Assembly: GCA_009103225.1 (NCBI GenBank)
Contig: RHPI01001715.1
Span: 772,011 to 836,010, forward strand
Source: Chlorokybus atmophyticus
Lineage: Eukaryota; Plantae; Mesostigma and Chlorokybus algae
DNA: 64,000 nt
Direction of reading: 5' to 3'
The position numbers and the translations under genes were made by a program. This document shows positions 35,182-63,894 of the stretch, piece by piece (position 1 is the first letter of the stretch; each line of letters opens with the position of its first letter). The notes under the pieces were generated by a model. That model was not told where the DNA came from. It saw only the letters and a program-made list of their open reading frames with translations, and made no database searches.

Positions 35182-35375
35182 AGAACAACCGCCGCCGCCG
35201 CCGCCGCGAAGATAGCGCCAAAGCTTGTGTCGCAACACAGGAATATTATTAGGAAAGCGCAGGGCTGAAGAACGCCGTGGGCACAGCGGCGGCGGAGGTG
35301 GTGGTGGAGGAGGCGCAGGAGGTGTGGGGAGGATTGGCAGGGACGGAGGGTGCTCGGTTTACAGGGTGGGGTGGC
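35182..35375. promoter_or_regulatory. Compact bidirectional promoter/5'UTR region between ADAT1 and SEC20
   Basis: Inferred start codons at 35181 (-) and 35376 (+) are only about 195 bp apart; the region carries GCC repeats. Confidence 0.6.
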
Positions 35376-40100: not shown

Positions 40101-40283
40101 GGTTTAGCAATTGTCTGTACTTGTATTGACTACTACCCTCCCTCTCAATATAAATTAGTAGACAACATTGCTAGAAGAGAACAATCGCGTCTGTACATGC
40201 CCAAAAGCAATCTGTCGACACATTGCATTGATTTACATAAGCAGTTGCGTCCACCATCCGTGTTACAAGTCACATGCGCAGGT

Positions 40284-41440
40284 ATGGACTTCGCATGGTC
40301 CCTTCAAGCTGATGCGGAGACCCGACACACACGGCGATTGCACGTCGGCAATTGGAGTCTACTGCAGCGCAACGTGCAGCAACGGGCCATGCTCGCCTTG
40401 GCCAATGTGGAGCGCATCAGTGCTGCAACCACTAGTGAGAATACGCGCGCTCGGCGGGAGCTTGTGTGGCGGAGGAGTTCATGGGCTACTTGCAAGCACT
40501 ACATGTTGCCGTGGCAGATGTCACTCCCACCATGACGGCCTATTCAACCGAGCATTGAAACGATGTGCACATCACCAAAGCCCGACGCAAGGATAAGAAT
40601 GGTGCACTTATGATATCTAACACCACCATTGAGGTGACTATTATGCATTTGAGCGCTGGTTTCAGGTGGCATGGTAATGTGGGCTCGTGGAGCACAAGTC
40701 ATCCCGCAGGCAACCCGTGCGAGTCTGTGGATGTGCCTAAGTATCGCGCTGGCTATGCGAAAGTGACCGCTCAAGCTGGCGTGCAGCCCGTGCCTGCCAT
40801 CATGGCAGTATGATACCGTTGGCTCATGCCGACATGAATATACTGGTATGCTACTTTCAGCGGCATGTAGAGTAATCGACCAGTGCGGGCCACTTATGAG
40901 AGCGCAGTCATTTGGCGTGACTACACATTGTGCATGTATTTGTGGTGCACATGGCAAAGAAGCAGTGAAGGTGCTTGCATAGAAATGGAACATATATATA
41001 TGGACGGCACAGAAGTCTGTACACAAGCCACCCACCTCAAGAACTATAGTGCAGGGCCGGTACAACCTATCAAAGTTTGCAAGAGCGACTTGAGTGTGGA
41101 GTTCTGCAAAGTGCTAGAGTTGTACTTGAGCCATGTACATGAGAGCCCCTTCAGCATCAAAAAAGGCCCCATCTTTCGTCCGCTAGCCCGCAACAAAAAG
41201 CACTGGGAGGAGCGCAGTATCAGCAGTGATTGCGCATATAACGCATTCGTCAAGCACACCAAAGAAGTGGCATCTATCGCCCTCACCTAGGACTGCACTC
41301 ATTCCGACGAGGTGGTGCGCAGCATGCGCTATGCACGGGTGTGTCCTTGGAAGACATTCAAGCTCAGGGGTTGTGGAAAAGAGCACAAAGTATGCATATG
41401 AACTTGCACAGGTATGTACCCCTGGTTCCCATGTAACGTA
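40284..41440 (+). pseudogene. Tyrosine recombinase (YR) of the DIRS-like element, frameshifted
   Basis: WRDYTLCMYLWCTWQRSSE (catalytic R), GPIFRPL, LGLHSFRRGGAQH (H-x-x-R), QGLWK and a downstream Y. Confidence 0.85.
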
Positions 41441-41599
41441 AGCCACAACATACGGATAGGATCCCGGGTTGATGGTATTGTCGGGTACCTTGGCGCCTTC
41501 GTAAACCAGTCCCTGTGCTTGCCCACATGACGCATGTCTCGCTTGCGCCAAGCCATGACAGTGCATGCCAACATACAGCAAAGTGCCATTCTTGCAGCA

Positions 41600-41860
41600 G
41601 CACGATAGCTGCCAGCTATCGTGCTGCTGCAAGAATGCTAAAATGATGCAATTGCTTGATGCAGGAGGGCGAACGGAGGGTGAAACCATAACAGTCCCTT
41701 GCTCGCTTCTATCCTAGCTTGCCTCCAATCGGAGGTGAGTGCATTGCCCACGCTGTCCGGCATCGGCACAGCCGACATAAACGCTGCAAATTTTGCGTTC
41801 CAATCCGCTGCAAACACATCCAGAAAAGGCTTGCCAATAGGGATTAGATCCCAGGAGACA
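41600..41860 (-). pseudogene. Dam-like N6-adenine methyltransferase domain following RNase H
   Basis: PFLDVFAADWNAK..GNALTSDW..LWFHPPFALL corresponds to the DLFA..N.K and (N/F)PPF motifs of the DIRS MT domain. Confidence 0.75.
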
Positions 41861-44084
41861 CCTACGCAGTGGGTGTGTCTGCGAATGCCCAATCCCTTTG
41901 TCCGGCTGCTTCGAGAGCGCATCCTCAGCTGCCAAACTCACACGTGGCTCCCAAGCCATAAAGACCGGCAAATCTCTTTCCCAAGAAACCTGCCATAAAC
42001 GGTGCAATGCGAATTGCACAGCTTGGTGCGATGTTGTCAACTTTATTAGCATGGCCACGGCGGGCTGGCAATCGCCAACAATTCTCACAATGGCATGATG
42101 CAATGCTGGTTATTATTGTATCAACTCTACAAAGACAGCCACATATGCAAATGCCTCCTTCACTGCTGAAGGTAGACCTTGTTGCCAAAGAGCAAAGTTC
42201 CCCGCCATCGCCGCCCATGGGCCTATAGCATCCCAGCCCATGGTGCCAGACGCATCCATGCGCAACTCATGTGCCACTGGCGGCTTCCAGCACGCCGAGC
42301 CATTATATGCCGGCATGCTTCGCTGCAGCCACAACAAAAAGTCAACAACGGTGGTGGTGTAAACTCTTCATCCCTGTCACTCTGATTGGTGGTCAGCTGT
42401 AGCAGCAAGCGCGCATACGGTAGCTAAGGCCAATGTTATTGCCACTAGTTTGCCTGCTACCTTTGCTAACATGCGCTTGGTGATCACGTTTGTGCTCATC
42501 ATCTTGTGCATCAGCTCCCATAACTTCTGTGACGTGGTAGGGGGTATGCAGAACACACCACGCTCGGTGTTCAAGAGTAGGCTCAGTAGCTTGACACACT
42601 GTTGCGACCAAAGCACGCACTTTGTTAGGGTGACAAACATGCCCAGAAGTTTCAGTAGCCGCAATAATTGCATGATGCGCCAGCACATGTGGCGGCGATC
42701 GGCATGGCTGAGGTGCATGTCATCAATGTATGATAAACAGCCTATGCCGAGCTTACGCAAGGGTTTGAAGATTGTAGATATTAGCTTTGCACATAGCCAT
42801 CAAGAACAAGCTCAGCGCCGCCGCCGCCGTCGCTGCTGCTCTGCTCAAGCATAACAACAACAACTACTACTACCACTACGGCGTGCAAGCTTACAGCGCC
42901 GGCGCCCTGCAAGGTACGCTGCCTAAGCTATTGAGAGCGCGGCACGGGGCTGTGACATTGGCAGAGGGTGCAGGCTGAGGGCGCGTTCAATGCCCGCTGC
43001 ATCTTTTGCGGTGGCAAATTCAACAACTGCCAACGCCACGCGCTCAGTCAGGGACGTCGGCAATTGAGTATTGGCCAATACAAGTACAATACAAGGCACA
43101 TCATGGTCCTTGCAGGTAGAACATGGTCTCTTACAGCTACCAGTACGGCTGCTAGTATAAGAGTACGGCAGATTGCAATATAAGAACGATATGTTTTACC
43201 TCACGCATGTTGACGGCTGTAATTTTGTCGATACTGCTCCTAACTAAAAGCATACAGATATCAACGCCCGGTAAAGTTGGCATCACACAAGTGTGCCTAC
43301 GACGTGTTGCCTCTCGTCCATTAAGGGCCGCGCCGATGCAATATCAAACAACATGCGGCCCGCTTAGCGCTGACGCAACGACCGTTGATGACTCAGCGTT
43401 GGAGTTGCCCACCCTCAGGCGTGCGTGGTCCCACGCACAATGTATGGGTCCCTAAGTTCGACAGGATGTTTTGGGGCCCTCTTCCGCACAACCCAAATAC
43501 TGACTAGTGAAGTTTAATGATACAATGTGCACCGGGTCATTTATCACAAATGGCGTTGATGTTAGTCCAGAGTTTGGGGTACATCATTTGTGTGCTGTGA
43601 CCTGGACCAAACCGTCGTTTAATCGGTGTCCATTGCAGCTGGTTTGTAGCAATCATTGACTGTATATTGTGGAAGACCAGTGTCCGACTGAGCCCATGTC
43701 ACGCTGAGACTCTTAGCCGAATATTAACTATTTTCTTCGACTCGCAAAAAGTCTGCTCTTGTAGCTGCACAAGCGTGGGCATTATCGTAACGGTGACGCC
43801 ACCACTAGCGCATACAGCCCTGCAAGCGGGACCGGACCAAGGACGCAGGGTATGCAAGTGCATGCGTTTGCCTTTCTGTGTGTAGGCAGAGAAGATGTTC
43901 AACTTCAAGTCGAGAGCGTGTGCACTAAGCATGCCATTAGCAAGCAGCTTGCTTGCTCTGTCACTCGCTTGGCCGCCGCATGGGAGGGGCAGTTGCCTGC
44001 TGCAGGAGGCGCTACTCCGCGCTCTGTTTGCCCCTGCTGCGACCGACAAAGGTGAGACAAGACGCTGCCCTTCCCCGCCGCCCN

Positions 44085-44830
44085 TTCCAAGTCCATAGTT
44101 CGGAGCTCTCGCCTGGCAGCAGCCACCTTGTCTCGCACAGCAGCGTTTAGCCTCGCCTCTGTCGAGAGGAGGAAGAGGCGATTGCCTCACAAGCCTGACG
44201 CGCCCCGAGCAGCAGCTCCTCCACACGCCCCCCTCCCCCTCCCCTCGCACGTGTCGCGCAACTATTCTTGCTTGTTGGTCGGTTGGTTGGAGGAGGAAGG
44301 CACCGCATATTGTGTGTTTTCGCATGTTGAACGATCTAGCATGTGCAAATTAGTCATGTGCCAGCTTGCACATGATTGACAAGTCCGGCATGCGCGTGTA
44401 TGCATGTGGCACAGGAGCACTTAACAACAGAACAACTTCGTGTCCTGCTCATCAACGCCACCAACAACATGCATCCCACCAGCAAACACCACAACCGCCG
44501 CCGCCGCCGCCGCCACCGCCGCCGCTACTAGCCGCAGCACATTTCTTCAGCTGTGTTGCACAGCACAGCTGAAGAAAGCTGTGGGCACAGCGGCGAAGGT
44601 CGTGGTGGCGCAGGAGGAGGAGGAGGATTAACAGGGGACGGAGACGGTTCTCGGCCCGCATGGTGGTGTGCCATGGAGAGGGTCAGGCGTGTGGAGGAGC
44701 TGCTGCTCGGGGCGCGTCAGGCTTGTGAGGCAATCGCCTCTTCCTCCTCTCGACAGAGGCGAGGCTAAACGCTGCTGTGCGAGACAAGGTGGCTGCTGCC
44801 AGGCGAGAGCTCCGAACTATGGACTTGGAA
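44085..44830. repeat. 145-bp inverted repeat (44085-44229 and 44686-44830), derived from SEC20 exon 1; 456-bp spacer
   Basis: The left arm read by eye is the reverse complement of the right arm (GGCGTGTGGAGGAGCTGCTG...GAACTATGGACTTGGAA). Confidence 0.92.
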
Positions 44831-45440
44831 GCGCAGCAAGACATGTACGCTCTGCGAATAGGTGTATTAGTGGTATGGACAGTGCTTCGCTGACTTGACT
44901 ATTGCAAACATTGTCTTTATACGAAACGCTACCAAACTTTTATTCTTAAACTCTTAACCTGGTGAAGCTGCCCTGTCACAAAATATTTATAAATATTAAT
45001 TGCGCCGTTTACGTATAAGCCTTTTTATTGTTAATCGCTAACAACTACACATTTTCAATCCATGTCCGCATTGCAGACTGTCGAGTTTCCTCACAGTGCA
45101 TGCTATGAGTAGTATGCGATGCCTGGATTGATATTGCTTCAAAGTGTTGCCTCTGTAGCTATAACAGTTGTAACGGTGCGTATGCCCCTTCTGATCGTCA
45201 GGCACACCTGTTTGTGCAGGGAGAGCGACCGCTATGCGATGCTCGTTGTATGGAAATCATTTGCAAGAACACTTGACACGTAACGCCTCCGCGTCTGTTG
45301 TTCCGATGCAAAATCGTTGTATTGAGTGTGATTTGCGCTTGATTGTCATTGTAACACATAACCAATTTCACAGGCTACGTGTATTGCTAAAAAATAGCAA
45401 CCTGCAAGCAACGGTGAACAGCGAGCTACAGCGACAAGTA
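44490..45440 (+). pseudogene. SEC20: Partial genomic duplicate of SEC20 (5'UTR, exons 1-3 with introns), frameshifted
   Basis: Similar to 35185-36121: ACAACCGCCGCC, GCTGAAGAA..GTGGGCACAGCGGCG, RVEELLLGARQACEAIASSSS, CAG|GGAGAGCGA (45220) and CAG|GCTACGTGTA (45372). A deletion in exon 1 shifts the frame into TAA. Confidence 0.9.
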
Positions 45441-45727
45441 TACTCTCAATAACTAACTGGCATTGCTGAATTATACCGCAGCATGCGCTGCTTATTCGGA
45501 ACAGTCGCAGACTGACGTGATTGTTGTTGCAGCCTAGTGCACTGTTGGTGGGAGCCTTGGACACAATGCGTGTTGCGCAATCGGGAGGGACAAACCATGG
45601 ACAATGTATTTATAACTTGTGTAGTTTGTAATACTGTAGTATTTCACGGTTTTGGAAACAACCATTTCCAAAACCGTGAAATACTACAGTATTACAAACT
45701 ACACAAGTGGGAACTCGTCAAGCTACA

Positions 45728-45941
45728 TGTAAAGCCACCCCAGGCTCGAGCACTTAGCTCTCACCTATGAAGCGTCATGCACTCTACTTAGTGCGCACTC
45801 ACACACAAGTGTTAGCACCGTGCATACAATCACACAAACAAGTGCAAGCACGTCCTCCAAGTGTACACACTCACACACAAGTGCTACATAAGGACAAGCG
45901 TCCACACCTTGAGGTTGAAGAGCTTTGGCACCCCCTTGAAC
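45728..45941 (-). repeat. Terminal 214 bp of the outer-element LTR (ends ...GGTGGCTTTACA on minus)
   Basis: Homologous to 62822-63072 and to the reverse complement of about 60085-60268. Confidence 0.9.
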
Positions 45942-46695
45942 AAGTATCTTATATGAAGGATTGATGACCTGTTCGATCAATTTGGCAAAGCAAAGATGTT
46001 TAATGCATTGCACTTGACGGCGGGGTACTCATCATATCAGAATTACTAAAGAGGACACTCGTAAAATCGCCTTCAGAGCACCTAAGGGACATTTGCAATA
46101 CAAAGTGTTGCCGTTTGGTTTGACCAATGCACCCGCTACTTTTCAAGCGGTTATGAACCACATTCTTGCTCTCTACATCAACAAGTTTGTGCTCATCTAT
46201 GTAGACGACATTTTTGTGTATAATGAGAATGAGGAGGAGCATACTGAGCACCTCCAACTGGTGTTTGACATACTACGCAAGCACAAGTTCTATGCTTGCT
46301 TAAAAAAATGTCGCTTCTTTCAAGAACAGGTGTTGTTTCTTGGTCAAGATGTTAGTATCGGCACAGTCAAGGCCGACCTACAAAGGTAGGCGTGGTAAAG
46401 GAATGGCCTTCACCAAAGAATGTGTCCAACTTGCGGTCATTCTTCAACCTAGCCAACTACTTTAGGCGCTTTATCCTAAGGTACTCGGCCAAAGCAACAC
46501 CGCTCACCAAGTTGTTGAGCAAAAACATCAAATGGAGTAGTGAAAAACACAACAAAGAGTCTTTAATGGCATTAAAGATGCATTGATGAATGCACCGGTG
46601 TTGCAAATGCCGGACCCTCCTCCCAACCCTTCGAAGTGAGGAGTTATGCTAGCTTGTACGGCACCGGTGCGGTGTTGTTGCAAGATGGACATCCC
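45942..46695 (+). pseudogene. Outer element reverse transcriptase core and start of RNase H
   Basis: RIDDLFDQ, VLPFGLTNAPATFQ, LIYVDD, LRSFFNLANYFRRFI and GTGAVLLQDGHP, with stops and frameshifts. Confidence 0.93.
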
Positions 46696-46929
46696 TGTCG
46701 GGTTGAGGGGAGTCGAGGGTCACACTATCTCGGGCCGCTACAGGAAGAGACATGCTTGCTAGCCCTGTCGCTGCAGCATGTTATAACATGTAGCAACAGT
46801 AAAAGATAACCCAACTCGTATGGCGAGGAGTTCTTGGTGGAGCTGCTCCGCTGCCGCTGAGTCACACGGACATGTGGAGGCGGTGTCCTCCTTAGTGTAC
46901 ATGCTGTGCTGTAGGACATACAGTCAACA
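46696..46929 (-). repeat. Putative 3' LTR (234 bp, TGTTGA...CCGACA on minus) preceded by polypurine tract
   Basis: On minus, AGAGAGAAGCTTAGGGGGGGTGGCT is immediately followed by TGTTGAC. No matching second copy was found. Confidence 0.55.
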
Positions 46930-46983
46930 AGCCACCCCCCCTAAGCTTCTCTCTGAGGAGGTTCCCGCTCCAGAGCTCAGCTG

Positions 46984-48330
46984 TTAACGTTGGTGAGGAG
47001 GACCGTTGGTGCGGCAATCGTCGCACCAGTACTCCTCCATGGGTATTGCGTCCAATGGGGGCTCCAGACAGTAGCAATGCAGGCCCTTGTTGCAACCATT
47101 GCTGAGCATCATGAGTGCGTCGTCGCCGGCACTGCCGCAGCGTTCACAGCGTGTGCTGCGGGCAGGGCGAGGGTGGTGGATGCGCGCGAAGCCCGCTATG
47201 TAAGGAAGGTGACATGGCACGCAGTTCACCATGTTGTCTTTCAACCTCTCTCCATTCTGACCAAAGAGGTCCAGCACTCCTGTGGGGTACACCTTGAGTA
47301 CCTTGTAGACGGTGCGGCCCACGAAGGTGTCGAGCGTGTCTTTGGTGACTGTCATGCGGTAGGCAAAGTCCCCTGTTGAAACCGCTGTTGGCGCTCCTTG
47401 TAGAAGCCGCTCCGCACGCGCTCGTAGCGCAGGGTGTCGCGGTGCTGTGCGATGCGCAGGTTGTTGAAGGCCACCAGGACGGTGTGCTCGAATAGCGTGG
47501 CGCGTGTGGTAATGGTTGTGGTGCATCCAGTCGGGATCGTCGAGGTTGTTCACCACACGGTCTACTTCCTGCTGTGCACGAAAGGGAAGCAATGGCGGAC
47601 GCGCGAACAGCAAGTAGTATGGGCTGTACTCGTGCAGAGCCGCCTGCTTTGACAATTGGTAACCAAGAGCCACCCACGGAAGGTGGTCGTCCCAGGTGTT
47701 CTCCTTATACTCCAGCACGTACTGACGGAGTGCCTTCTTGATAGTCTGTACTGTCCGCTCGGCGAGACCGTCGGCTTGAAGGTGGTCGCGCGAAGTACGG
47801 CGATGATCAATGTAGCATCTGTCCAGCAGGGTGTCGAACTCTCCTCTGAATTTAATGCTCTGGTTGGTGATGACCTCAGCGCAGCTGCCAACCCGGCTGG
47901 GGACATGGGAGAGGAAGGGTTGAGACACCCCCCTGTTGCTCTTATTGGGTAATGGCACCAGCTCCACCCATTTGGGGAAGTGCTCGATTATGACCAGGAT
48001 GTAGCGGTTGCCCCGTGCCGAGGGTGCCAAGTCCCAAGATGTCGAATCCCCAGCGATATAACAGCCCAAAGATGGGGAGAAGGTGCAAAGTGGCGCTGCG
48101 TGTGTTGGGCTGGCGCCGCCATGTCACACTGCTGGCAGCGATCAACGAACCCCTGCACCTGTTTGAACAGCCCATACCACCAATATTGCGCCCTCACCAG
48201 GCTGAAGGTACGCTTGACACCGAAGTGTCCAAGCTCAGTGTGGAGGGCAGCGATGATGCCCTTGCGTGTGGCTAGTGTTGGCACCTCCTTGTCCTCGACT
48301 TGGACGCGGCGGTACACCTTGTCATCCGCC
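46984..48330 (-). pseudogene. Integrase (HHCC zinc domain + rve core) with C-terminal PHD finger
   Basis: LHTELGHFGVKRT..YWW..CQQC, WDL, GNRYILVIIEHF, DGLAERTVQTIK, then CERC..L(S)NGC..LHCYCLEPPL..PMEEYWCDDC (about 47165-47010). Confidence 0.9.
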
Positions 48331-48779
48331 CACCGATAGTGGCGGATGCGTTGACTGACACGATCTTTCTCTCGTGCACTCATGTTGGAGGGAAGTTGGC
48401 CACTTTGAAGAAAGGAGAGTGATGACTTGTTCAGCCACGAAATCTGCTTGATGCCGGTGGGTGCCAGCTCGGTGTTGTCGACTTCGATGTCGACCGCGTG
48501 GACGTCCCCCAAGGGTGTGATCACTGTGGGGTCGGTAAACTTAAGGGCAGGAATCTCCTTTGTCGCTGAGGTGGTGTTGATCCGGCGCCCTGACCGTAAT
48601 GCGGCAACAGCAAACATGGCCGCCACGGTGGGAGCTGCTGCTGCGGGGCCGAGCTCGTGCCGAACATCCGGTTGCATTGTTGGTGCTGCGGTGAGGGTTG
48701 CGACTGAGGCCATCAGCATCCTGGTTGGTGAGGCCGGCGCGGTGGTCGATCTTGAAGTCATACTCCTGCAACAATTGGG

Positions 48780-49990
48780 CCCAGCGAGCAAGTTTCCCTG
48801 TCAGATGTTGGTTGGTCATCAACCACTTAAATGGCCGATAATTGATGATCAGCTGAAAATTGTCGACCAAAGAGGAAAGGTTTGAAGAAGGAGATAGCCC
48901 ATACTGCAGCGAGGCACCACCCCTCGTAGCTGCTGTGGTTGGCCTCAGCGCTGTTGTTGCTTCCGCTGGCGTACGACACCACCCGCTCCTTCTTGTTCTC
49001 ATCGTGCTGTACCAGCACAGCCCCCATCCCAAGCTTGCTCCAGTTGGTGTGGAGGATGAAGGGCTTGTTGTAGTCAGGATGTTGCAGGATGGGAGCGGTG
49101 GTGAGCCTGCCCTTTAGCTCCTCAAACGCCTGCTGTAGTGGCTTCTTCCACGCAAACTCCACCTCTTTCTTCAGAAGCTCGTTGAGGGGTCGCGCGATCT
49201 TTACAAAGTTCTTCACGAAACGGCGATAGTAGTTGGCAAGGCCCAGAAAGGCACGCAGACGCGTAAGGTCTGTGGGAGCAGGGATAGCCACCAAAGCCTC
49301 CACCTTTGCCTGCTGTACGTACACACTGTGGGGCACAATCATGTGCCCTAGGTAGGGTACCTTGCAAGTGAAGAAGGTGCACTTGTTGGGGTGCACTGTC
49401 ATTCCCACCCCCTTGGTCTTTCGAGCAATTTCTCGATGTGCTGCAGGTGTTCGTCGTTACTGCGACTGAAGATGAGCATGTCGTCAATGTAGCATCGCTG
49501 GAAGTCCAGCCTCTTCAAGGCTTTGTCCATGACGCGCTGGAACTTGGCAGGAGCGTTCTTCAGTCCAAAGGGCATGACCTTCCACTGGTACAGCTGTCGG
49601 TTGCCCCAGAAAGAGGTCTTATGCTTGTCCTCCTCCTTGATGGCGATTTGGTTGTACCCTTGTCGCATATCCAAGATGCTGAAGACGGTGTAGTCTCCTA
49701 CATCATCAATGATACCCTCTGCAGTAGGCATTGGATACCTGTCTTGTTTGGTCTTGTTGTTGAGGGGGCAATAGTCGACGCACATGCGCCGGTCTGTCCA
49801 GTTGTCTGCTGAATCCTGCTTCAGGGGCATGACGGTCGCGGCCGCAAAGTCCGATGTGGACTACTCAATGAGGCTTGCATCTAGCAGAGCCTTGCACCTC
49901 TGCTCCACCAAGTCTTTTTCAAACTTGGAGTCGGTACTGTCGTCGAAACACCGGTTCAATGTCCACCGACTCGATGACCATCTGGTAAAC
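48780..49990 (-). pseudogene. Reverse transcriptase and RNase H of the nested element
   Basis: RMCVDY..LN, LDMRQGYNQI, MPFGLKNAPAKFQR, YIDD, LRAFLGLANYYRRFV, FILHTNWSKLGMGAVL and YEGWCLA. Confidence 0.95.
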
Positions 49991-50269
49991 TGAGCAAATG
50001 CCCAGTTCCTTTACGCTGAAACTGAACTGCCTTCTCCACTTGTTGAGAAGAGCCTCCAGTTGTTCTCGCGTCTGGCCGGTAGCCAGTGGTCCAATGACTT
50101 GGGACCGAGAGGTGGCATTGGCGACTACTGGGATGTCCTCTACAGTGACTGATGCCTGCTCCTCCATACGGGCGATTTTAAGGGCGGTGTGTGCCGCTTT
50201 GGTCTTTTGCACGCGATCGGCCCACCCCCGCGCAAGGTGTTCGAGCTTCTGGAAGGACACATGGCAGTC

Positions 50270-51240
50270 TTGAAGAGCAAAGCACATTTTCAATAACCAT
50301 ACCATGCTGTTCTTATTCATGGCGCGTCCCAACAATTGGCATTGCTTACTGTCGGTCAGCGTGGAACCTGTGATACTGCCTACAGAGAAGCCCATGGCGC
50401 GTTCGCGCTCACGTGCATTGGGTTCCTCCGGCTGGCCTAGGTTGGAATCCAACACCATGCATGCACCATGGTTGCGGAAGGCGTATGATCCTGGGTAAGA
50501 CACCAGAGTGGGGAGCGCACGACGTGGTTGACCAGGCTGGTTGCACTGGTACAAGTGCTGGTGATCGTGTTGAGTGACCAGTTGTGCTTTGCACCCAGAG
50601 GATAGCGTCGATGGCCAGATCTCGTGGACGACTGCTGTGCAGATATTCAGCAGCAAAGAGATCTTCAACTGTTGCTAGGTTGGTCCACTTGGTGCGGACG
50701 CAATGAGCACGGGATCCATGCCGCGCTGCATTAATTCTGAGAGGATGTCCCAGTAAGGAACACACCTGTTGGAAGCTGTTGGCCATGTGATGGCGCTTAT
50801 CGTCCTCGGAGTGCACATTTTCGATGATGTATCCTGGAGGCCTAAACAGCTGGCTGCTGTGCAGGATTTTGATGACACGCATTGGTTCCCAGAACAGTCG
50901 TGAGTGAGGATTAGCGAGTCCTTGGCCGCTGCCTGCTCAGGAGTGTCCTCAACACTCCCATCCTGCTATCAGCAGGTCAATGTTGCCCACCGCTAGGAGG
51001 TGATCCGCAGTGATCAAATGGATGTTCTGTGGTAGTGCCTTCAGACTGCCTTGCCGTGCCAAAAGCGGCAGTCGCTGCGGGTAGCATTTGTGTCAGTGGC
51101 GCAGGTGGTGGCCCAGGGCAATCTGTGCGTGTGGATTAGGGTCACAGTAGAAGTACTTGATGACCGTCGCGCTGGTGTTGAGGACAGCGGCGAGGCCACT
51201 ACCTATTCCTCCAAACAGTTTTAACACGGTGATGCCTTGT
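50270..51240 (-). pseudogene. C5 cytosine DNA methyltransferase domain (DNMT3-like) within pol
   Basis: Motif I VLKLFGGIGSG (51227-51201). Motif IV IDLLIAGW-[1-nt frameshift]-C*GHS*AGSGQGLANPHSRLFWE (about 50980-50885). Motif VI YIIENV (50831-50813). Motif VIII INAARHGSRAH.VR..WTNL. Motif IX ERERAMGF. Motif X QLLGRAM (about 50335-50318). Confidence 0.9.
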
Positions 51241-51757
51241 TGGCGATGGAATACGTGAAACTCCACTACTTCAGTGGCCACCTGGTGTTGTTCCTGGACA
51301 GCAGCTTGGTCCTTGTAGAGAGGGAACCGAAGTGAGCCGTGGTCTGGTCAGTAGTAGATGTGCAACCACCTGTGCGCGCCAGCGGCGTTCCGCTGATTTG
51401 TGGTAAGCCACTTCTTCAGTGGCATTTTTTTGAGACTCGTCGTATGGGATAGGAGAGACTTGGTCCGGGTTGTGGGTGACCACCGCAAGTGATCTGTCAG
51501 TGGTTGTCGAACCCGACCTGTGGGTGGCTGTCGCTGCTGACCTGTTAGTGGTTGCCGACAACGACATAGGTGGCTGTTGCAGCTGACTACCGGTGGGAAC
51601 GAGTGCGAGCTACCAGTTCGAGAGGCAGATATCCTTGAACCTCTCCGTCCTCCTCATCCCAATGAGGACGAAACCATGCCTTCTTTGTCCACCAGTCCAG
51701 CCTTATGCCGACAGGGCAGTTGAATTCCTGTCTCAACAACAGGTCGAAAGATCCTGA

Positions 51758-52036
51758 TCAAATGACCACACACTTCTGTATGACCTCGATGCTGTGGGAC
51801 GGGTCCACTCCTGTCAAGCGCATGCAGAGGGCTTGCTTGGTTATGCCAATCACTTTGTTACGGATGCCGGTTGCGGTGTCGAGTACGTATGGGCACGGCA
51901 TCAGCTCAGCGCTGGTGATGTCAAGGTCGCGTGCGAGGTAACGTTCGATGATGACAGGCTGGGCTCCAGAGTCTAGCATTACACGCTTGGGTGCTCGTCC
52001 ATTGATCGTGACATACTTGGTTTGGCTGGCAATCAT
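51758..52036 (-). pseudogene. Retropepsin aspartic protease of the nested element
   Basis: RVMLDSGAQPVII (D-S/T-G-A motif). Confidence 0.88.
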
Positions 52037-54647
52037 GGCTGCATTGGCGTGGATGCGCAGCCGCTTGAATCGTCGCTAGCGTGTGCGTGGGGTGTTTGTT
52101 GCTGCGATCTCCTCCGATGGTGTCGAGCGCAGTGCGGCAAGCGCCCCTCGACCAGCTGGGTCTTGAGCACCTCCTTGACCGCGGCTTGGCCCAAACCATC
52201 ATTTTCTTGGCTGTTAATAAACACGATGTGGCCTGGGTGCTGGCGGTGCTGCCTGTGGCTGCCCTGGTTGTGGCGCAGAGGAATTGCGTCTCTGTGTGGC
52301 AGGGGTCATTCCTGGCGGCGTAGCCAGTGGCTGTTGGGGAAACCTGTTGAGAGTCATTCCTACATACGATCAGCATCGACCCTCCACACAGGAGTAGAAG
52401 GTCGTAAGGATGAGCACTAGGTCCGGACTTAGCAAGATGGCGTCGTCGGACCAGACTCCGGACTCCAGACTGGAGCCTTACTAACTGCTTCGTATCTCCG
52501 CGTATACTTACTCATATTAGGCGTGTAAGAGCTTGTTGAAAAGCTCTGGTTGTAAGGAAGACAACACAGCTTAAAGCGCGTCAAAAGGCTGAGTATAGCT
52601 TACGCAGTGCTTGCAAACGTAGACGTGTGTGTAACTGGCTGGTTTAAGAACCAGCGGACAACTTGTAATAGATGAATGTGATGTGACTTGTGTATGCTCT
52701 GGTGGCGGTAGCTCTGCCTTTGTGCATCCATGCTTGCCTCAGCTACATGTGCATGCTAGTGCTTCAACAAAACTTTGGAGGCCCGGGTGTTTGTGGGCTC
52801 GCCTCCCGTGCAGCCCGTTCTTCCACATAAGTCCAGCGTACTGCATGAGCTCCCTAACCAGTGTACCTTCCCATGCGGCTGTTGGGTTGTTGACCACGTC
52901 ACTCCAGCAGTGATTCTGAGGCATGGGCTGGAGATACACTGCGCGCAGGAGCCGCGCTCTTATGTCGTGGGTGATGGTGGGAACCCTTGGGATCCCTGCC
53001 ATGTAGGCATCCCATCTGCCATTGACCACTCCCACTTCCAACACCGTTGTTGCTCGCGCTCGCACACAGTGAGGTAAACCTCTGGTTGTCGGACATGCTG
53101 CTCATAAGCAGCTGCGATGCGTCTGCGTTGCCGCACTGCTTCCACCCCTGGCAACCTCAGCATGGCCTCTTGTGCTCCTTTTAAGGTGTCAGTGGCTGCC
53201 GAGGCAACCGCGTCATAGGCTTGCCGTAGCGAGGGCAGGAAGGCGTCCAACCAAAACAATCTGGTGCCGAATGCGAACAGGGGAATTGCAGGGTGATTGG
53301 TGACTAGCCAAGTCACCAGTCTTGCTCGAGCTGCATTACCACCTTCCCGCATCCCCAACATCCGTCTCAGGCCGATGCTTTCTTGTCGGTGCAGCATGGT
53401 TGCTTGTCGCAACAAGGCAGTGCGAAGTTGCTGTTCTCCAATTGAACCTGCTCCATCTCGTTGTGTCCACCCTTGCGGTGTGAGGTAGCCTGGATCCCGT
53501 TAATCTTCAGGCAAGTCTTCCAACAACTGGTTTGTTGGGCCAGCGCTTTCGTTTAGTCACTGTCGGGCCCACCGACAAGAGGTGTCGTACTGGATAATGG
53601 GCCAGCGATTGTGGGTTGAAAAACGCCAGCGCGAGCATCGGCAAGGGCTTGTGCTCTTGCGTCGATTGCTTCTGATTGGTCCTGTCGCCAGGTGAATGCC
53701 TGTTCAAGCGCGGTGTAGCGCTCATGAAGTTGAACGGTATTTAGGGGCCTCAGTGCTTCGCTGTCACCCATAGGCATGTCGGCTGTATCAGCGATGTGCT
53801 GCTGTACGTTGGGTTGCCGATCCCAACACGTGTTTAGTGGGCTGGGCTCAAAGGGTTCATGATGAACTGGTGCGGGTTGGCGTGGCGCCGTCTGCATGTC
53901 GTCATGCAGAGTTCAGAACACCTGTAGTGCCAGCTCCAGTACAACAGGTGTTCTGACTACGAAAACACGGTCTCGCATGGGAGGCGCCGTGCCGGCAAGG
54001 ATTTCATCCTCCAGCTGCCGCTGAGTCTGTACCGGCAGCGTGTGATATTCAGGCAGTAGGAAGACTCGATCATTGCGTTCAACGCGTGTTGTGCGCTCCC
54101 CTCCGCGCTCTGAAGCAATGGTAGTGGGATCTGCTCCACGCATGATGGTCTCCCAAGCACGCTCAGCTTGCTGACCTCGCGGGACAGCTTGAGTGACGTC
54201 GAGGGCGGGCAATGTAGCTGCGCTTGTCGCTGCGGTGGCAGCAGGCTTGACGATGGCACTGCCGGTGGTGGCAAGAGTGCCGCTCAATGGGGCGAGGGTG
54301 GTCTCAACGCTTGCTGACACAGGGTGGTCCTGCAGTTGGAGCGGGACTGGTGCGACCTACTGCTGCAGGGTCGGTGACAGCAGTGGCTATTGCCTGCGTG
54401 CTCACCAGTGTTGGCGCGATGTGCTCACTGGTACACCAACTTCTTGTGAAATTGGAGCAGTTGCTGCTAATGTTGACGGAGTCGACGTCGTAGCCGGTGT
54501 AACTTTTGCTGCGGGTGCAGCACTACTGGTGGCTTCAGAGGAGGTAGCTGTTGACGATGTTGCGGTTTCCCCTCAAACTCGTCGCAATGGTTGAATACGC
54601 GACGGAGTGCTGGTATCTCTCGTGCGCTTTGGAGCCATCAGTGCCCA

Positions 54648-55960
54648 CTAGGCAGAGTAACAGGCGCGGTAGTCCTGCTCTTTGTCTTCCTCTAAGCGTG
54701 CCATACGCGCCATAAGGGCAGCCATATGGTCATCAGCTGGCGGGTTGGCTGGAGCCTTGGCGGCAACAGCAGCAGCGCGCGGACGTCCTTCCAGTCCCTT
54801 ACGCTGAGGAGGGCGATTCTTCCCCCTATAGCCTTGCTCTTCGTTGCGAGCGTTGGCGTAGTTGTTGGTGTTGTTATGGCCTCCGGTGTGATTGCTGTTG
54901 TAGCCGCCAGAGTTGTTGCCATTGTGGCCTCCAGTGTTGTTGCTGTTGTAGCCACCAGAGTTGTTGCCGTTGTAGGTGACGAGTCTCAAACTAGGGAACT
55001 TGAGCCAGCAAACTAACTTCAAGTGGCCTGTCTTGTGACAGTAGTCGCAGACCAGAGTTGAGTACTCTTCGGTGCACTCCTTTTTGTAGTGCCCATGCCG
55101 TCCACAACGACGACACAGCACAGGGGCAGGCAAAGCAGCATGCGCTGACCGTTTCCCTTTGTCGCGTGCTGGTGGAGCGTCCCGGCCACGTTCGCAGTGA
55201 GGAGGCTCGACAGTTGTGCTGGCATCAGGCCGTAAGGCGCTGCGGTTGGTGTCCAGCACTGCCTTCCCATACACCAAGCGCTTATGGATGGCTTGTGCAG
55301 TGTCGAAAGCTTCTTTGAGCGTGTAGCCAAGGGGTCTGCTGTAGTTTCGGGTCATCGCGCGTCGACTCGCTCAAGGTGGCATCCAACTCACTGACATATA
55401 CCACTGCAGCAGCCTCGTCATTAACAATCTTGTAGTCAGTGTCCTTCAACAGACCTTCCAGTCTGGAGTACAGGCGTCGAGGGTCCTCATTGGGCTTGCA
55501 TCGGAATCGCCTTAACTTCTCCACTTTGCTAGTGGTCTGCGGTGGGAGGGTGCAACGAAGTGCAGCGTATAGATCCTTGAGTGGAGAGTCAGAGATGGCA
55601 GCACCTACAGTGATGGCTGGTGCGCGCACTGCAACTGACCCGAGGGTGAAAGCACTGCCTCCCGCACGAGAGCCAGGTGTTGCCATAGGTGAGGGTGTGC
55701 CCACCTCAACGGCTGCAGTTCGTTGTTCTTCAAGGATGGCAGCGGAACGGTTAAGGATCCCGGCCCGTCGTGCGGCCGTCTTGATCTCAACCTCTGCAAG
55801 GGTCAGGTTGACGATCACCAACTCACGTTCCTACTTCTCTGCTCTGTCAATGGCTGCCGTTATAAACAACTCGGTGACTGCAGCGGGAGTGGCAGGTGGA
55901 AAGACGGCTGCTGGACTGTGCCGTGACGCAGATGCTATGGTACTGGCGAGCTCGCCATAG
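54648..55960 (-). pseudogene. gag with two CCHC zinc knuckles and Gly/Asn-rich repeat
   Basis: EKLRRFRCKPNEDPRRLYSRL; CRRCGRHGHYKKEC and CDYCHKTGHLKLVC; (NSGGYNSN[N/H]TGGHN)x2; one frameshift near 55350. Confidence 0.85.
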
Positions 55961-57206
55961 CCATCAACTCGATGCAGTTCAGCAATTTTCAGACATTATG
56001 TGCTTTATGGTCCAGATACTCAGCAGCAATGTGAAAAGAGATCTCATCTGACGAGTCTTTATTCTTCAGAGCCTGCTGTCGCATCTTGGAGTAGAACTTG
56101 ATGATGTATTTGTCCAGCGAGGTAGTGCCAACACGTCCGGAGAAACGCAGGGACGTGGTTGAGCTGGAAGACTTCATCTCGTAGTCATAGTCGTTCTGTC
56201 GGGTGAGAGTGGGGAAGCTCGATGTCGTGGAGTGGACAGGAACATGATTGAAGTCGGAGACAGCACGTGAGCCTCTGCTGCTACAATCGTTGCTCCCGTC
56301 AATGGTCCGCTCGTAGTTGAGGTTGGAGGTTGGGCTCCAGCTACTGAGGTCACCCTCGTCTATTGGAGAGAACGGGTGGGCCTGCTCATACAGCTAGTCC
56401 AAAGGTGAAAGTGTATGCAGGGTAGAGTGTTTGTGCTCTACCGCCTGTCTCGATGCCGCTACCACTCACCACACTAGTGCTTGTGTGCGCACTATGTAAT
56501 GATAGTGATAACAAATGCACATGGATATGTCCCCAGATACAGACTGCACTATCTGATGCAGAATGCAACGCCTTCACTTGAGCAAAGAGGGTGACAATGT
56601 GAGTCCATAAGCCACTACTATAGGTAGTGCTGTTTACACAGTTCTTTGCATGAGCAGAAAGTGTGTTACCCTGTTAAGTGAGGTGGATGAGCAAGCAACA
56701 CGTGGATACTATGACCTTATTGATGCCAACAAACACACTGCAACCAGGCACACCAAGCTCACAGCAATGACAAGCACGATGCACACACGAGCATGCACAG
56801 GCTCTCATACAGTGAGGGGGTTCTTGGTAACCGGGATGGCGTGTTCGCAGTTCAAGTCGTTTCACAAGCTCTTAGCTTTCTCACTTACAGTGTCACCAGC
56901 TGATCCGGTGAACACTGTGACTACTTATACAAGATAAATTATCATTGCTCAGAACATAAGCTAGCGGTCATATCGAGGCTATTTCCACGGCAATTGTCAC
57001 TCGATATATAACACAACTTATAACTGAACTCACAACTGAACAGCTACGCGCGGTGCCTAAGTAGGCTATGGTCGTGAGCTACTCTGGGGTCATGACCTAG
57101 CTACTGGTCAGTGACGCACGCGCGCTGGTATGCGGGTAGGCCGGGCGATGGTTTTGATGTAGCCATGCTCGATGAAGGCTGGTATGCGTGGGCAATAGGC
57201 ATGACA

Positions 57207-59025
57207 TCCCGTTGCTTTTGAGTCACACAAGTTAGTGACGCCGAGCGCAACTACACCACTACCGAGCAAGAATTGCTTGGAGAAATAAACGGCTTGTGGA
57301 AATGGCGTTGTTACTTTGAGGGGGGGTGAAGTTCAAGGTTGTAAACGACCACAATCCCCTTATGTACCTTCCCCAACAACCCAACTTTTCTCAAAGGCAA
57401 GCACGATGGGCCGAGTTCCTATCGCACTTTGACTTTGAGTGGGAGTATAGGCCAGGGAGGATCTATGTCGCGGACCCTCTCAGTAGATGCCCGCCAACCT
57501 CTCAAGCTTTGTGAACCAAGCTATGATCGTTGCGGCAGCGACAAGGTCGCAAGCATAAGTAATATTGAGACTTGAACCGGTTAAAGAGAGCAAGAGAGAG
57601 CCAACCAGCTTGGAAGCTAGAGTGGCAGGTGCTTACCTCACCGATGGTTTCAGGACTTAGACAAGTTCGAACTAGTGCAAGTAGGCAACTATTGGTACAG
57701 GGTGAGGCGGTAGTGGTGCCGGATGAACCGGGCCTTCGAGTGGCATGCATGAGCGAGATGCATGACCCTCCCAGCCGAGGGCACTTTGGCATCAAAAAGA
57801 CCATCAAGCTTGCGCAAAGAAGCTATTGGTGGACTTCAATGACAAGTGGCATTGAGGCGTATGTGAAGACGTGTGACTTATGTCAATGCAAAAAGTCCAT
57901 CAATGCACGCAAGGGTGGCTTGCTTGTACCTCTACCCGTGCCCAATGACACGTGGGAGAGCATGAGCATGGAATTGGTAACGGTGCTACAAAAGACAAAG
58001 CATGGCAACACGGCCATTGTTGTTTTTGTGAATAAGTTAAGCAAGATGGCTCATTTTGCCGCATGTAAGACGGAGATCTATGCGGTTGAGTTTGCTAGGT
58101 TGTTCATAGCAAACGTGTTTAAGCTTCATGGACTCCCGAAGAAGTTGGTCTCGGATAGAGATCCGTGACTCACGGGAGCATTGTGAAACAGTGTGTGTGA
58201 GACATTAGAGATTAAGCAATTCATGTCCACTGCATACCATCCTCAAAGTGGACGGGCAAACGAAGAGGATGAATAGAAACTTGGAACAAGCCTTTTGACA
58301 CTGTGTGTTGGTAGGCCAAGACAATTGGGATGAGCTACCAGATGTAGTGGAGTTCGGCATGAACTCAGCCTATTAAAAATCGGTGAAGGAGAGTCCCTTC
58401 TGCTTGAAATATAGCAAACATCCTGATGTGCCTAGTGAGAAGATTTCCGGCAATAAGGCAAGGGCACCAGCTGTGGGAGAGCTTGCCGCACGCATATTAA
58501 ATGCGCTAAGCAAAGCTAAGGCCGCTATGAAGAGTGCTCAAGGCCGCCAAAAGCACTTTGCCGACAAGGATTGCCGGGAAGTACATTTTAGTGTTTAATG
58601 TTAAGCAACAAGTGTTGCTTAGCACGAAAAACATTACAATTAAGAGTCGGGGAAGTACGAAGCTTCTACCCAAGTGGAGTGGCCATTTCGAGGTGCTTGG
58701 TCCCGTTGGCGCCGTGGCGTATAAGCTTCGCCTCTCGGAGCACTTTAAGATACATGATGTGTTCCATGTATCGTTGCTAAGGGAGTACAAGAGTAATGGT
58801 AGAGTCCAACCCCCACCTCTACCCGAGTGGATGGATGGTGAGTGGGAGTATGAGGTAGAGGCGATATGGGCACGCCGTGGTAGATACCGTTCTCTTGAGT
58901 ACTTCGTACAATGGAAGGGCTATGGTGTAGAACACAACTTATGGGTCTTAGAAAAGGACTTGGCAAATTGCCAAGCGTTGATGCAAGAATTCCTTGCAAG
59001 TCACGGAGACTTAACCCAAACCTAG
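57207..59025 (+). pseudogene. Outer element RNase H remainder, integrase and chromodomain
   Basis: VAFESHKL..YTTTEQELL, DHNPL, HDPPSRGHFG..CDLCQ, LVSDRDP, GPY/F-like KLLPKWSGHF, HDVFHVSLL, and chromodomain EYEVEAIW..YFVQWKGYGVEHNLWV.EKDL. Confidence 0.93.
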
Positions 59026-59190
59026 CTACCCTTTGTGTAGCAATAAGGCCCTTCCAAATGTGCACAAGACATGTGCAAACCCAAGCCAAACCTACTAAGT
59101 AAGAGTGCACTCACGAGAGGCAATTATGGAGGTTGGCCACCTTCGTGTCTCGTTGTTTCTCAAACCTAATATGTGTCGCAGACTGTCACA

Positions 59191-59207
59191 AAGTAGGTGG
59201 GGAGAAG
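59191..59207 (+). other. Polypurine tract of the outer element
   Basis: AAGTAGGTGGGGAGAAG immediately precedes the LTR start TGTAAC at 59208. Confidence 0.85.
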
Positions 59208-60268
59208 TGTAACGTGGCTAGTACTTGTGCTCTCAGTGCTTGAACATGCGTGAGATATATAAGCAATATAAATATATATAAATACAAACATGTGTGTTTG
59301 CTGCTACAAGGTAGACATTGATGTGGACAAGTTAGCCATAAGTGTCTACACTGTAGATATGTACGTCATATATGTACATGTATATGAGACAAACATTGGT
59401 GTGGACTAGTTAGCCACTAATGTCTATAAGGTAGATGTACATGTCTACTAGGTAGACACTTACATATACAAAGGTACGTATGTTAATATCTTGGACATAA
59501 ATGTGGATACCTTCTATGCGATTGTTGACATCGCAGCTTTGATGTCGATATTATGAAGATCCGTAGCAATGTTGATATCGCATATAAGGATGCGGATATT
59601 GTAGCAGTAGATGTCTCTACATTGTTAAGGACAATGAGGTTAAACCACGTGTATTTGTCTTGAAAGCACCAGGTGATGCATATGTTGACATTGTAGACTA
59701 CCATATTGATATCGAGAATACTAGTATTTACAACATGTGGCCAAGTGAATGTGTTGCCAATCGAGGCAAAGCCATGAAGATCTGGTGCGACCTCATTGGT
59801 TGCTCATACCTTTGGGTGAGATACTCTTTAAGATGATTGGTTTAAAGCCTAGTAAAGACACGTGCAAGAGTGCTTGTTGCAAGATGGTTGGCCGCCTTTC
59901 ATTACACTAGGGTCCGAACGAGGCTATGGTAGAGACACCCAATACCCTTGAGTGACTTGATAAGGCACTAGGGGTATATAAGTGAGCATGCTCAGTATGC
60001 AAGACATTGGAGACTTGGGTCTACCTTGCCTTTGCTTGCTCGCTCGTGTGGGACTTCAAGTGGGATGCTCGGGTGAGAGGCCGTTCAAGGGGGTGCCAAA
60101 GCTCTTCAACCTCAAGGTGTGGACGCTTGTCCTTATGTAGCACTTGTGAGTGTGTACACTTGGAGGACGTGCTTACACTTGTTTGTGTAATTGTATGCAC
60201 GGTGCTAACACTTGTGTGTGAGTGCGCATTAAGTAGAGTGAATGACGCTTCATAGGTGAGAGCTAAGT
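59208..60268 (+). repeat. 3' LTR of the outer element (about 1.06 kb; last ~24 nt missing)
   Basis: Reverse-complement homolog of about 62845-63894. Confidence 0.9.
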
Positions 60269-62821: not shown

Positions 62822-63894
62822 TGTGACGCCACCCTAGGCTCGAGCACTTAGCTCTCACCTAAGCGCGTCATGCACTCTTCTTAGTGCACGCACTCACACA
62901 CAAGTGCAAGCACTCTCACACCGTGCACACACTCACACACAATTGTTAGCACCGTGCATACACTCACACATGCAAGTGTAAGCACGTCCTTCAAGTGTAC
63001 ACACTAAACACAAGTGCTACATAAGGACAAGCGTCCACACGTTAAGGTTAAAAAGTTTTGTCACGCCCTTGAACGGCCTCTATCCCGAACACCCCACGTG
63101 AAGTCCCACACAAGCGAGCACGCCAAGGCAAGGTAGACTCAAGTCTCCAATGTCTTGCCTACTGAGCATGCTCACTTATATACCCTTAGTGCCTTATCAA
63201 GTCACTCAAGGGTAGTGGGTGTCTTCACCAATGGTGCCTCGTTCGGACCCAAGTGTCTAAGGCGGCCAACCATCTTGCGACAAGCACTCTTGCACGTGTC
63301 TTTACTAGGCTTAAACCAATTATCTTGAAAAGTATCTTACCCATGGGTATGAGCAACCAATGAGGTCGCACCGGATCCCCATGGCTTTGCCTCCATTGGC
63401 CACACATTCACTTGGCCACATGTTGTTGAATCTAGTATCCTCTAAATTAATATGGTAGTCTACAATATCAACATATACATCACCTGGTACTTTCGAGACA
63501 AATACATGTGGTTTATCCACATTGTCCTTTACAATGTAGAGACATCTACTGCTAAAATATCCGCATTTTTGTATGCGATATCAATGAATCTTCATAATAT
63601 CGACATCAAAGCTGCGATATCAACAATCGCATAGAAGGTATCCACATTTATGTCCAAGATATTAACATACGTACCTTTGTAGATGTAATTGTCTACCTAG
63701 TAGACATATACATGTAGACATTAGTGGCTAACTAGTTCACACCAATGTTTGTCTCATATACATGTACATATTGGATGTCAGTATCTATAGTTTAAACATT
63801 TGTGGCTAACTTGTCCACATCAATGTCTACCTTGTAGCAGCAAACACACATGTTTATTGCTTATGTATCTCATGCATGTTTAAGCACTTAGAGC
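62822..63894 (-). repeat. 5' LTR of the outer element
   Basis: Ends ...GGGTGGCGTCACA on minus directly before the PBS; homologous to 59230-60268. Confidence 0.9.

Follow-up and report, generated by a model that had tools for sequence, protein, structure and literature searches.

Cytosine methylation is usually directed at transposons, and a transposon that keeps a DNMT3-type methyltransferase of its own under selection allows one to ask directly whether methylation can be of use to the element itself. Such a case seemed to be present in Chlorokybus atmophyticus, an early-branching streptophyte alga, in a stretch of 64,000 nucleotides (the whole of which we call the window), where motifs of a C5 cytosine methyltransferase (DNMT) appear among the pol frames of a retrotransposon. 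Is this domain a true part of the element, and what would such an enzyme do for it? The copy in the window is a decayed, dead Ty3/Gypsy retrotransposon carrying a DNMT3-like domain in its Gag-Pol.

The element spans 46696-57206 on the minus strand (10,511 bp) with the termini TGTCA...GACA, and reads in the order gag with zinc knuckles, protease, DNMT, reverse transcriptase (RT), RNase H, integrase and PHD finger. Its borders are fixed because the RNase H of a chromovirus is interrupted there, the left flank reading ...LLQDGHP and the right flank PVAFES.... This insertion into a chromovirus, the lack of an LTR pair at the ends and the PHD finger had gone unnoticed in the initial annotation. The parts are as follows (here and below, L numbers denote related metagenome loci and P numbers homologous proteins):

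57207-57210, minus strand: 5' copy of the target-site duplication, GGGA (4 bp)
56600-57206, minus strand: half-repeat A, the putative promoter-R-U5 part of a permuted LTR, with the same layout in L026 and L002
56929, minus strand: TATAAG within half-repeat A
56888-56898, minus strand: candidate self-primer, 31 nt past the TATA-like box, with an inverted copy ahead of it
56600, minus strand: inner ...CA end of half-repeat A, placed by comparison with relatives
56589-56599, minus strand: candidate primer-binding site, next to the CA end of A on the coding side
54648-56210, minus strand: gag, broken (PF00098, E 1.2e-4), with CCHC-type zinc knuckles at 55115 and 55049
52780-54640, minus strand: long, coding-like and partly low-complexity spacer between gag and protease
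52345-52769, minus strand: later solo-LTR-like insertion, TGTTGA...TCAACA, with a 5-bp duplication agreeing at 4 of 5 positions
51683-51991, minus strand: aspartic protease (PF13650, E 1.3e-5, and a profile match), LDSG at about 51976
50276-51239, minus strand: DNMT3-like C5 cytosine methyltransferase, motifs I-X, with three in-frame stops and one frameshift
49384-50065, minus strand: reverse transcriptase (PF00078, E 1.2e-23; tblastn of P0061 and P0062), YIDD at 49491-49480
48778-49150, minus strand: RNase H (PF17919, E 2.6e-30)
47581-48270, minus strand: integrase, H2C2 zinc domain and core (PF17921, E 5.4e-15)
47002-47148, minus strand: C-terminal PHD finger (PF00628, E 4.4e-6, above cut-off)
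46986-46984, minus strand: pol stop codon
46935-46954, minus strand: polypurine tract; an AGGGGG-type tract is also present in L002, L012, L015, L016 and L026
46696-46929, minus strand: half-repeat B, the putative 5' part of U3, with its TG start just past the polypurine tract and a GACA end
46692-46695, minus strand: 3' copy of the target-site duplication, GGGA (4 bp)
45985-46691 and 57211-59025, plus strand: the interrupted chromovirus, an older Ty3/Gypsy element (RT, RNase H, integrase, SH3, Chromo)

The gag, the order of protease, RT, RNase H and integrase, and the DDE-type integrase (its core reaching E 2e-57 with a homolog-built profile) bear out the Ty3/Gypsy identity proposed in the initial annotation. 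TG...CA ends, a target-site duplication and a polypurine tract are all present; two full LTRs around the coding region are not. No repeat common to both ends and no long internal repeat was found within the window, and an ordinary LTR pair was rejected for this reason; permuted halves stand in its place, in the form A-coding-B. Membership in the DIRS, Ngaro or PAT groups was also rejected, since the element has a DDE integrase and none of the 16 ORF pieces scanned from it matched a tyrosine recombinase. A chromovirus has a chromodomain at the integrase end, where this element has its PHD finger instead; the chromodomain found at about 58850 is that of the interrupted chromovirus (RT at 45985-46386; integrase and chromodomain at 57572-59022, plus strand). 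The gag has weak similarity to the gag parts of P0055, P0056 and P0082. Read depth is raised across the span of the element, and is higher over the solo-LTR-like insertion, which is missing from some sibling contigs, than over the rest. The spacer between gag and protease amounts to about 600 codons and includes a globular-looking piece of 179 aa; the spacer had no match in Pfam or among the 198 homologs described below, and the 179-aa piece no usable match in the Atlas.

Outside the element, the window holds four host genes and several other repeats:

1385-3460, plus strand: WD40 protein, dynein intermediate chain-like by eye
10817-11332, plus strand: sulfotransferase
21979-27738, minus strand: Jade/BRPF-like PHD protein
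33135-33878, minus strand: adenosine deaminase domain

The Jade/BRPF-like PHD protein matches a protein of the Chlorokybus atmophyticus genome (jgi/Chlat1) at 91%, and the exons that align cleanly agree with it at 100% identity. A degenerate element at about 40000-42800 has a weak RT match (PF00078, E 5e-4) and frames that by eye resemble RNase H and a tyrosine recombinase, and is probably a DIRS-type remnant. Dispersed direct repeats about 9.3 kb apart (35259-36113 and 44563-45436) and long inverted repeats (59286-60268 and 63009-63855) are probably remnants of other transposons.

The methyltransferase domain lies between the protease and the RT. There we recovered, in canonical order, the motifs that the initial annotation had listed:

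51227-51201, minus strand: motif I, VLKLFGGIG
50981-50931, minus strand: motif IV, followed by SRLFWE at 50903
50828, minus strand: motif VI, IIENV
50711-50676, minus strand: motif VIII
50410, minus strand: motif IX, ERERAMGF
50335, minus strand: motif X, LLGRAM

Motifs I-VIII share a single frame, which is broken by in-frame TGA stops at 51095-93, 50951-49 and 50939-37. None of the three stop-free DNMT pieces matched PF00145 when taken singly; the motif I-VIII frame repaired with X at the three stops matched it at E 1.1e-7 and 32 bits, above the curated cut-off of 22 bits, and the domain thereby passes the profile check proposed for it. That the copy is inactivated is right, given the three stops, the frameshift and an altered arginine in motif VIII, and an intact catalytic frame is absent. 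The initial annotation had put stops and a frameshift at the catalytic motif: stops do fall in it, and the frameshift lies later, at 50598-50572, past motif VIII and ahead of motif IX. In motif VIII, Cys stands in place of the first Arg of RxR, which is a further sign of decay. All three stops being TGA would fit deamination of methylated CpG. Motif IV reads E-C in place of P-C, and this is, judging from the homolog counts given below, a natural variant.

Downstream, motifs IX and X open without a stop into the N-terminal segment ahead of the RT in ORF 49919-50674, so that the shared frame first noticed at this point is confirmed; a second frameshift near 49929 parts this ORF from the Pfam RVT_1 portion. 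The domain is accordingly a part of pol and no passenger, as had been argued, since the frame is open to the RT segment and DNMT and RT lie in a single ORF in P0061 and P0062.

The DNMT3-like character of the domain was also upheld. The best PDB sequence match of the motif I-VIII piece is DNMT3A (E 8.5e-4), and a five-row family profile ranks DNMT3A/B/C (E 5e-18) ahead of HaeIII (3e-8), DRM (5e-7) and DNMT1 (0.5). For fold we used the intact relative P0086 in place of the window's own domain: its predicted structure (pLDDT 95) is closest to DNMT3A/B (E 2e-20, TM about 0.7), and DNMT3 structures make up 37 of 37 chains among the matches listed. In this comparison of sequence and fold with PDB structures, DNMT3 appears to be the nearest kin of the domain, ahead of DRM, DNMT1, DNMT2 and bacterial enzymes.

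To what extent do other copies and other elements carry the domain? Contigs on 44000-60000 of the window number 1917 and 1013, from two of four sequencing runs. Across the DNMT bins the depths add up to 80-103 in the one run and 37-50 in the other, against 0-5 in 57350-60000; such depth does not count copies, and the window itself may derive from the best run. One sibling contig, differing at 97 of 576 letters, spans motif IX to RT, and another, with 56 differing letters and no gap, covers motifs IV-VIII. Siblings therefore carry the domain joined to the RT, and a one-off insertion, the outcome named as fatal to the idea, was not what we found.

Protein searches with the domain gave 8 matches among 2027 candidates and 45 among 7996, and 421 protein clusters matched at E<=1e-30. 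Pooling these searches, with the best 150 of the 421 clusters included, yielded 198 distinct homologs, most of which (146 of 198) have retrotransposon domains in the same protein as the DNMT. The window's order, with DNMT after the protease or before the RT, occurs in 49 homologs, and P0062 has the full domain order of the window element in one ORF. In 97 others the DNMT follows RT/RNase H or precedes the integrase, while 52 consist of the DNMT alone. The sister lineage with the order RT-RNase H-DNMT-integrase-PHD comprises P0002, P0008, P0009 and 94 other homologs. Of all 198 homologs, 62 carry a PHD finger at the integrase end. Some proteins of the sister lineage (P0008, P0069 and P0072) also carry PF01585 (G-patch).

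Among the homologs that could be scored, 174 of 175 keep the catalytic Cys, 160 of 179 have ENx and 161 of 163 have RxR; the residue before the Cys is E in 88 and P in 73 (198 homologs, 23 unscored). Among four relative loci with open frames, three pairs were saturated, and the DNMT had a dN/dS of 0.095-0.118 in all three unsaturated pairs, similar to the protease and above RT or integrase in the pair L002/L003. On these estimates the domain is under purifying selection in the relatives L001-L003 (dN/dS about 0.1), which are metagenome loci and not Chlorokybus copies.

Both the RT tree and the DNMT tree separate the two domain orders (66 rows; support 96 and 99), with the long-branch row P0084 as the sole exception; further trees, among them a quick DNMT tree, agree, and a tree with two outgroup RTs stayed unrooted. 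Mean DNMT identity is 42% within the orders and 35% between them, against about 24% to DNMT3A, which suggests, in trees that hold no host DNMT3 sequences, one capture followed by one relocation of the domain, with two captures as the alternative. Three Marchantia-labelled proteins fall on the window's side of the DNMT tree together with the Chlorokybus element. This placement suggests that the capture is as old as streptophytes or has spread sideways between them, and would be no Klebsormidium oddity.

As to donors, P0003, one of the top homologs, carries the label of a bacterial MAG protein. It is identical to L001, where the DNMT stands between protease and RT, so the label likely reflects bin contamination and a bacterial origin was rejected. 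As deposited, P0003 is a retrotransposon Gag-PR-DNMT fragment and could mislead claims of transfer. A viral donor was rejected as well, because the 55 viral loci gave only distant matches (E>=2e-14), of which 54 are partial and one is near full length at 25%.

The ends of the element are unusual, and the relatives help to read them. We searched 51 metagenome loci (34 independent), in most of which shortness or decay hides the ends. One complete locus, L026, reads target-site duplication AAGG, A1, coding region, polypurine tract, B1, GACA-GC-TGTC, A2, CA-AT-TG, B2, target-site duplication. The B-A-B arrangement at the 3' end recurs in six independent loci, and a 4-bp duplication is found in L026, L022 and the window element. 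In the L026 family, A follows directly on unique flank at seven of seven independent 5' ends; the mirror form A-B-A-coding-B, which would also be expected from a circle cut at random, occurs in none of the seven, so a simple circle model is incomplete. The full layout A-coding-B-A-B is thus found in relatives, while the window copy has A-coding-B, and L012 and L015 likewise end after a single B. In the window's own family, GACA-GC-TGTC links the 3' end with the 5' end in four sibling contigs (three from run X1, one from run X2), and in a single contig of low depth the inner ends are joined, A to B. Since B starts at the polypurine tract and A ends at the primer site, the true LTR would be B+A, with insertion at the palindrome between B and A. 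The A2/B2 join, which is CA-AT-TG in L026 and retains a remnant of the primer site in L022, looks like a two-LTR circle junction.

The primer site itself points to self-priming. In L026 and L002 a sequence of at least 11 nt after A is perfectly complementary to a site about 30 nt past the TATA-like box. At the same place in the window element, 56888-56898 is complementary to 56599-56589 at 9 of 11 positions, a match that is weak alone, as four inverted 11-mers with at most one mismatch occur within 800 nt; from its position, the candidate site is likely a self-priming site.

Some related subfamilies have a further signal between DNMT and RT. A stop-CAR-YY motif in the linker was counted in 23 of 27 loci with 400-800 nt spacing (15 of 18 independent), these being raw counts in which related loci are not independent events. 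In five independent loci this is the only linker stop and the RT continues in the same frame (a single in-frame TAG-CAR-YYN at L001 2081, L002 5083, L003 4661, L004 4509 and L026 6940), and four of them read TAG-CAR-YYA. The coding region of L002, for instance, is a single frame that the readthrough-type stop divides into two long ORFs, the only ones there. CAR YYA after UAG is the readthrough signal of TMV (PMC2754532, in its available text). In these subfamilies Gag-PR-DNMT would be the main product and the DNMT as abundant as Gag, which predicts a measurably high enzyme dose in the particle. The stop also explains the many database Gag-PR-DNMT proteins that end shortly after the DNMT. It is absent from the window element, where the frame is open, and from P0059-P0062.

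What, then, would an intact enzyme do? Considering the conserved catalytic residues, the selection, the position in Gag-Pol and the active related SymbioDIRS-Dnmt3, we lean towards the reading that the predicted DNMT of intact copies travels in the particle and methylates the element's own new cDNA or circle. The domain would be packaged with Gag-Pol and freed by the protease, while the RT would prime itself and make an ordinary linear cDNA that has B+A on either side, and whose two ends would be joined. The integrase would cut the palindrome GACA-NN-TGTC between B and A and insert the DNA as A-coding-B-A-B; the A-coding-B form seen in the window could go back to a one-LTR circle, to two cuts, or to recombination between two B copies at a later stage. 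The enzyme would modify the cDNA or circle, probably at CG sites as other DNMT3s do, and the new copy would arrive methylated. Two facts count against cDNA methylation. The Klebsormidium nitens Gypsy domain showed no methylation in yeast, a result its authors call inconclusive (available text of PMC5890265). Besides, the CpG observed/expected ratio is 0.74 in the element, 0.67 in the neighbouring DNMT-less chromovirus and 0.70 in the DIRS-like remnant; CpG is no scarcer in the element than in the elements around it, so that composition gives no self-methylation signature and CpG depletion was rejected as one.

The enzyme, if active, might instead act on chromosomal DNA, at the insertion site or on inserted copies, guided by the PHD finger of the integrase and tuning the silencing of the copy or its neighbourhood. 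The PHD finger of the window element and its homologs, the insertion of the window copy into another retrotransposon, and the effects on insertion-site chromatin and host benefit raised in 2018 (PMC5890265, as far as its available text goes) would all suit this account; nevertheless we think it rather unlikely, for a DNMT placed after the protease, and on the Gag side of the stop in some subfamilies, suits a particle protein, and the K. nitens methylome is described in the same text as plant-like and not altered. Comparably unlikely is that the domain persists because of some non-catalytic or non-DNA function such as nucleic-acid binding, particle scaffolding or RNA methylation. The inactivity in yeast, a PC motif whose P is replaced in more than half of the homologs scored, and an abundance that in readthrough subfamilies would reach the level of Gag and exceed the need for an enzyme fit such a role, whereas the near-invariant Cys, ENx and RxR are residues whose loss would be expected of a purely structural domain. 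Finally, this copy might have picked up a fragment of a host or bacterial methyltransferase in a single event, or be a chimera of the assembly, as the bacterial label of one top homolog might hint; this account is extremely improbable and is refuted by the identity of P0003 with L001, the sibling contigs that bridge DNMT and RT, the agreement of the RT and DNMT trees, and the distant nature of the matches in 55 viral loci.

Joining methylation of the element's own cDNA or circle with the other observations, we sketch, tentatively and with more doubt than belief, an old Gypsy lineage of green plants (Chlorokybus to liverworts, hundreds of families) that would prime itself, join its ends, insert at a palindrome and pre-methylate its circle with a particle DNMT3, with a readthrough-set dose at Gag level in some members and a sister lineage carrying the DNMT behind RNase H.

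How does this compare with known systems? The suspected link to the retrotransposon DNMTs of de Mendoza et al. 2018 (PMC5890265) is supported. The suggestion that family and architecture might be undescribed is not supported, as a Gypsy element with a Dnmt3 inside its Pol ORF was already described there as KnitGypsy-Dnmt3 of Klebsormidium nitens, and the Chlorokybus element adds a new host to a known kind. For retrotransposon-encoded DNMT3s in bryophyte or charophyte Gypsy elements, our literature search returned only that paper. Streptophyte retrotransposon DNMT3s are mentioned in two later works (PMC12344493, 2025; bioRxiv 10.64898/2026.05.21.726589, 2026), in the available text of which Chlorokybus is not named. 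In the literature searched, with most subscription journals outside its reach, we found no description of a Chlorokybus DNMT3 retrotransposon. Nor did we find in print TG...CA ends and a 4-bp duplication without an LTR pair, as here, or the A-coding-B-A-B ends of the relatives (by title or abstract, work on permuted LTR or circle ends in algal Gypsy elements did not concern this lineage), the likely self-priming site of Gypsy-DNMT3 elements, the two domain orders that split both trees, or the TMV-type readthrough stop, for which no retrotransposon site of CARYYA type was found.

KnitGypsy-Dnmt3 is the nearest system. Both are elements of streptophyte algae with an unrearranged, intronless Dnmt3-like domain in a Gypsy Pol ORF, a description that the window element fits, and the available text of PMC5890265 reports purifying selection and DIRS-like split repeats (Fig. 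4c legend). The window element differs in its host and in having A-coding-B ends only. Nothing is said in that text of a domain order, a PHD finger, a priming mode, a readthrough stop or a target-site duplication (the words "PHD" and "protease" are absent from its main part), and no Klebsormidium-labelled protein was among the 8 matches of 2027 or the 45 of 7996, so the comparison is by description.

The catalytic domain of mammalian DNMT3A/3B (PDB 6w89, 5yx2, 6kda) is the best match in sequence and fold, with the I-X order likewise unrearranged; the retrotransposon domain differs from it in its identity of about 24%, the lack of PWWP and ADD, the EC or PC of motif IV and a longer target-recognition region. 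SymbioDIRS-Dnmt3, which methylates CG de novo in yeast, shares the DNMT3 type and the place inside Pol and also occurs in two domain orders (available text of PMC5890265). SymbioDIRS, SymbioLINE-Dnmt and the EpiLTRs of Cymbomonas and Euglena are likewise retrotransposon-borne C5 methyltransferases (available texts of bioRxiv 10.64898/2026.05.21.726589 and PMC5890265). As far as these texts describe them, DIRS use a tyrosine recombinase, in contrast to the DDE-type integrase, PHD finger and target-site duplication here; LINEs lack an LTR-type pol; and the EpiLTR DNMTs, with DAM and a chromodomain, are sister to DNMT4, unlike the window element.

With regard to priming, the chromoviruses Tf1/sushi and Tcn1 have a primer-binding site complementary to their own 5' region in place of tRNA (available text of PMC6317226), a feature that is perfect in L026 and L002 and a candidate here; the window family differs from them in its PHD finger for a chromodomain, its permuted ends and its DNMT. 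The same text states that no other plant chromovirus group self-primes, and its survey met with no non-chromovirus Gypsy elements in algae.

To the published kind, then, are added a host, the size of the family, two domain orders, an end structure and a readthrough site. Permuted ends with a normal target-site duplication cast doubt on the rule by which LTR circles lead nowhere, and what the enzyme methylates, the question of the 2018 paper, is now easier to test with many natural intact domains.
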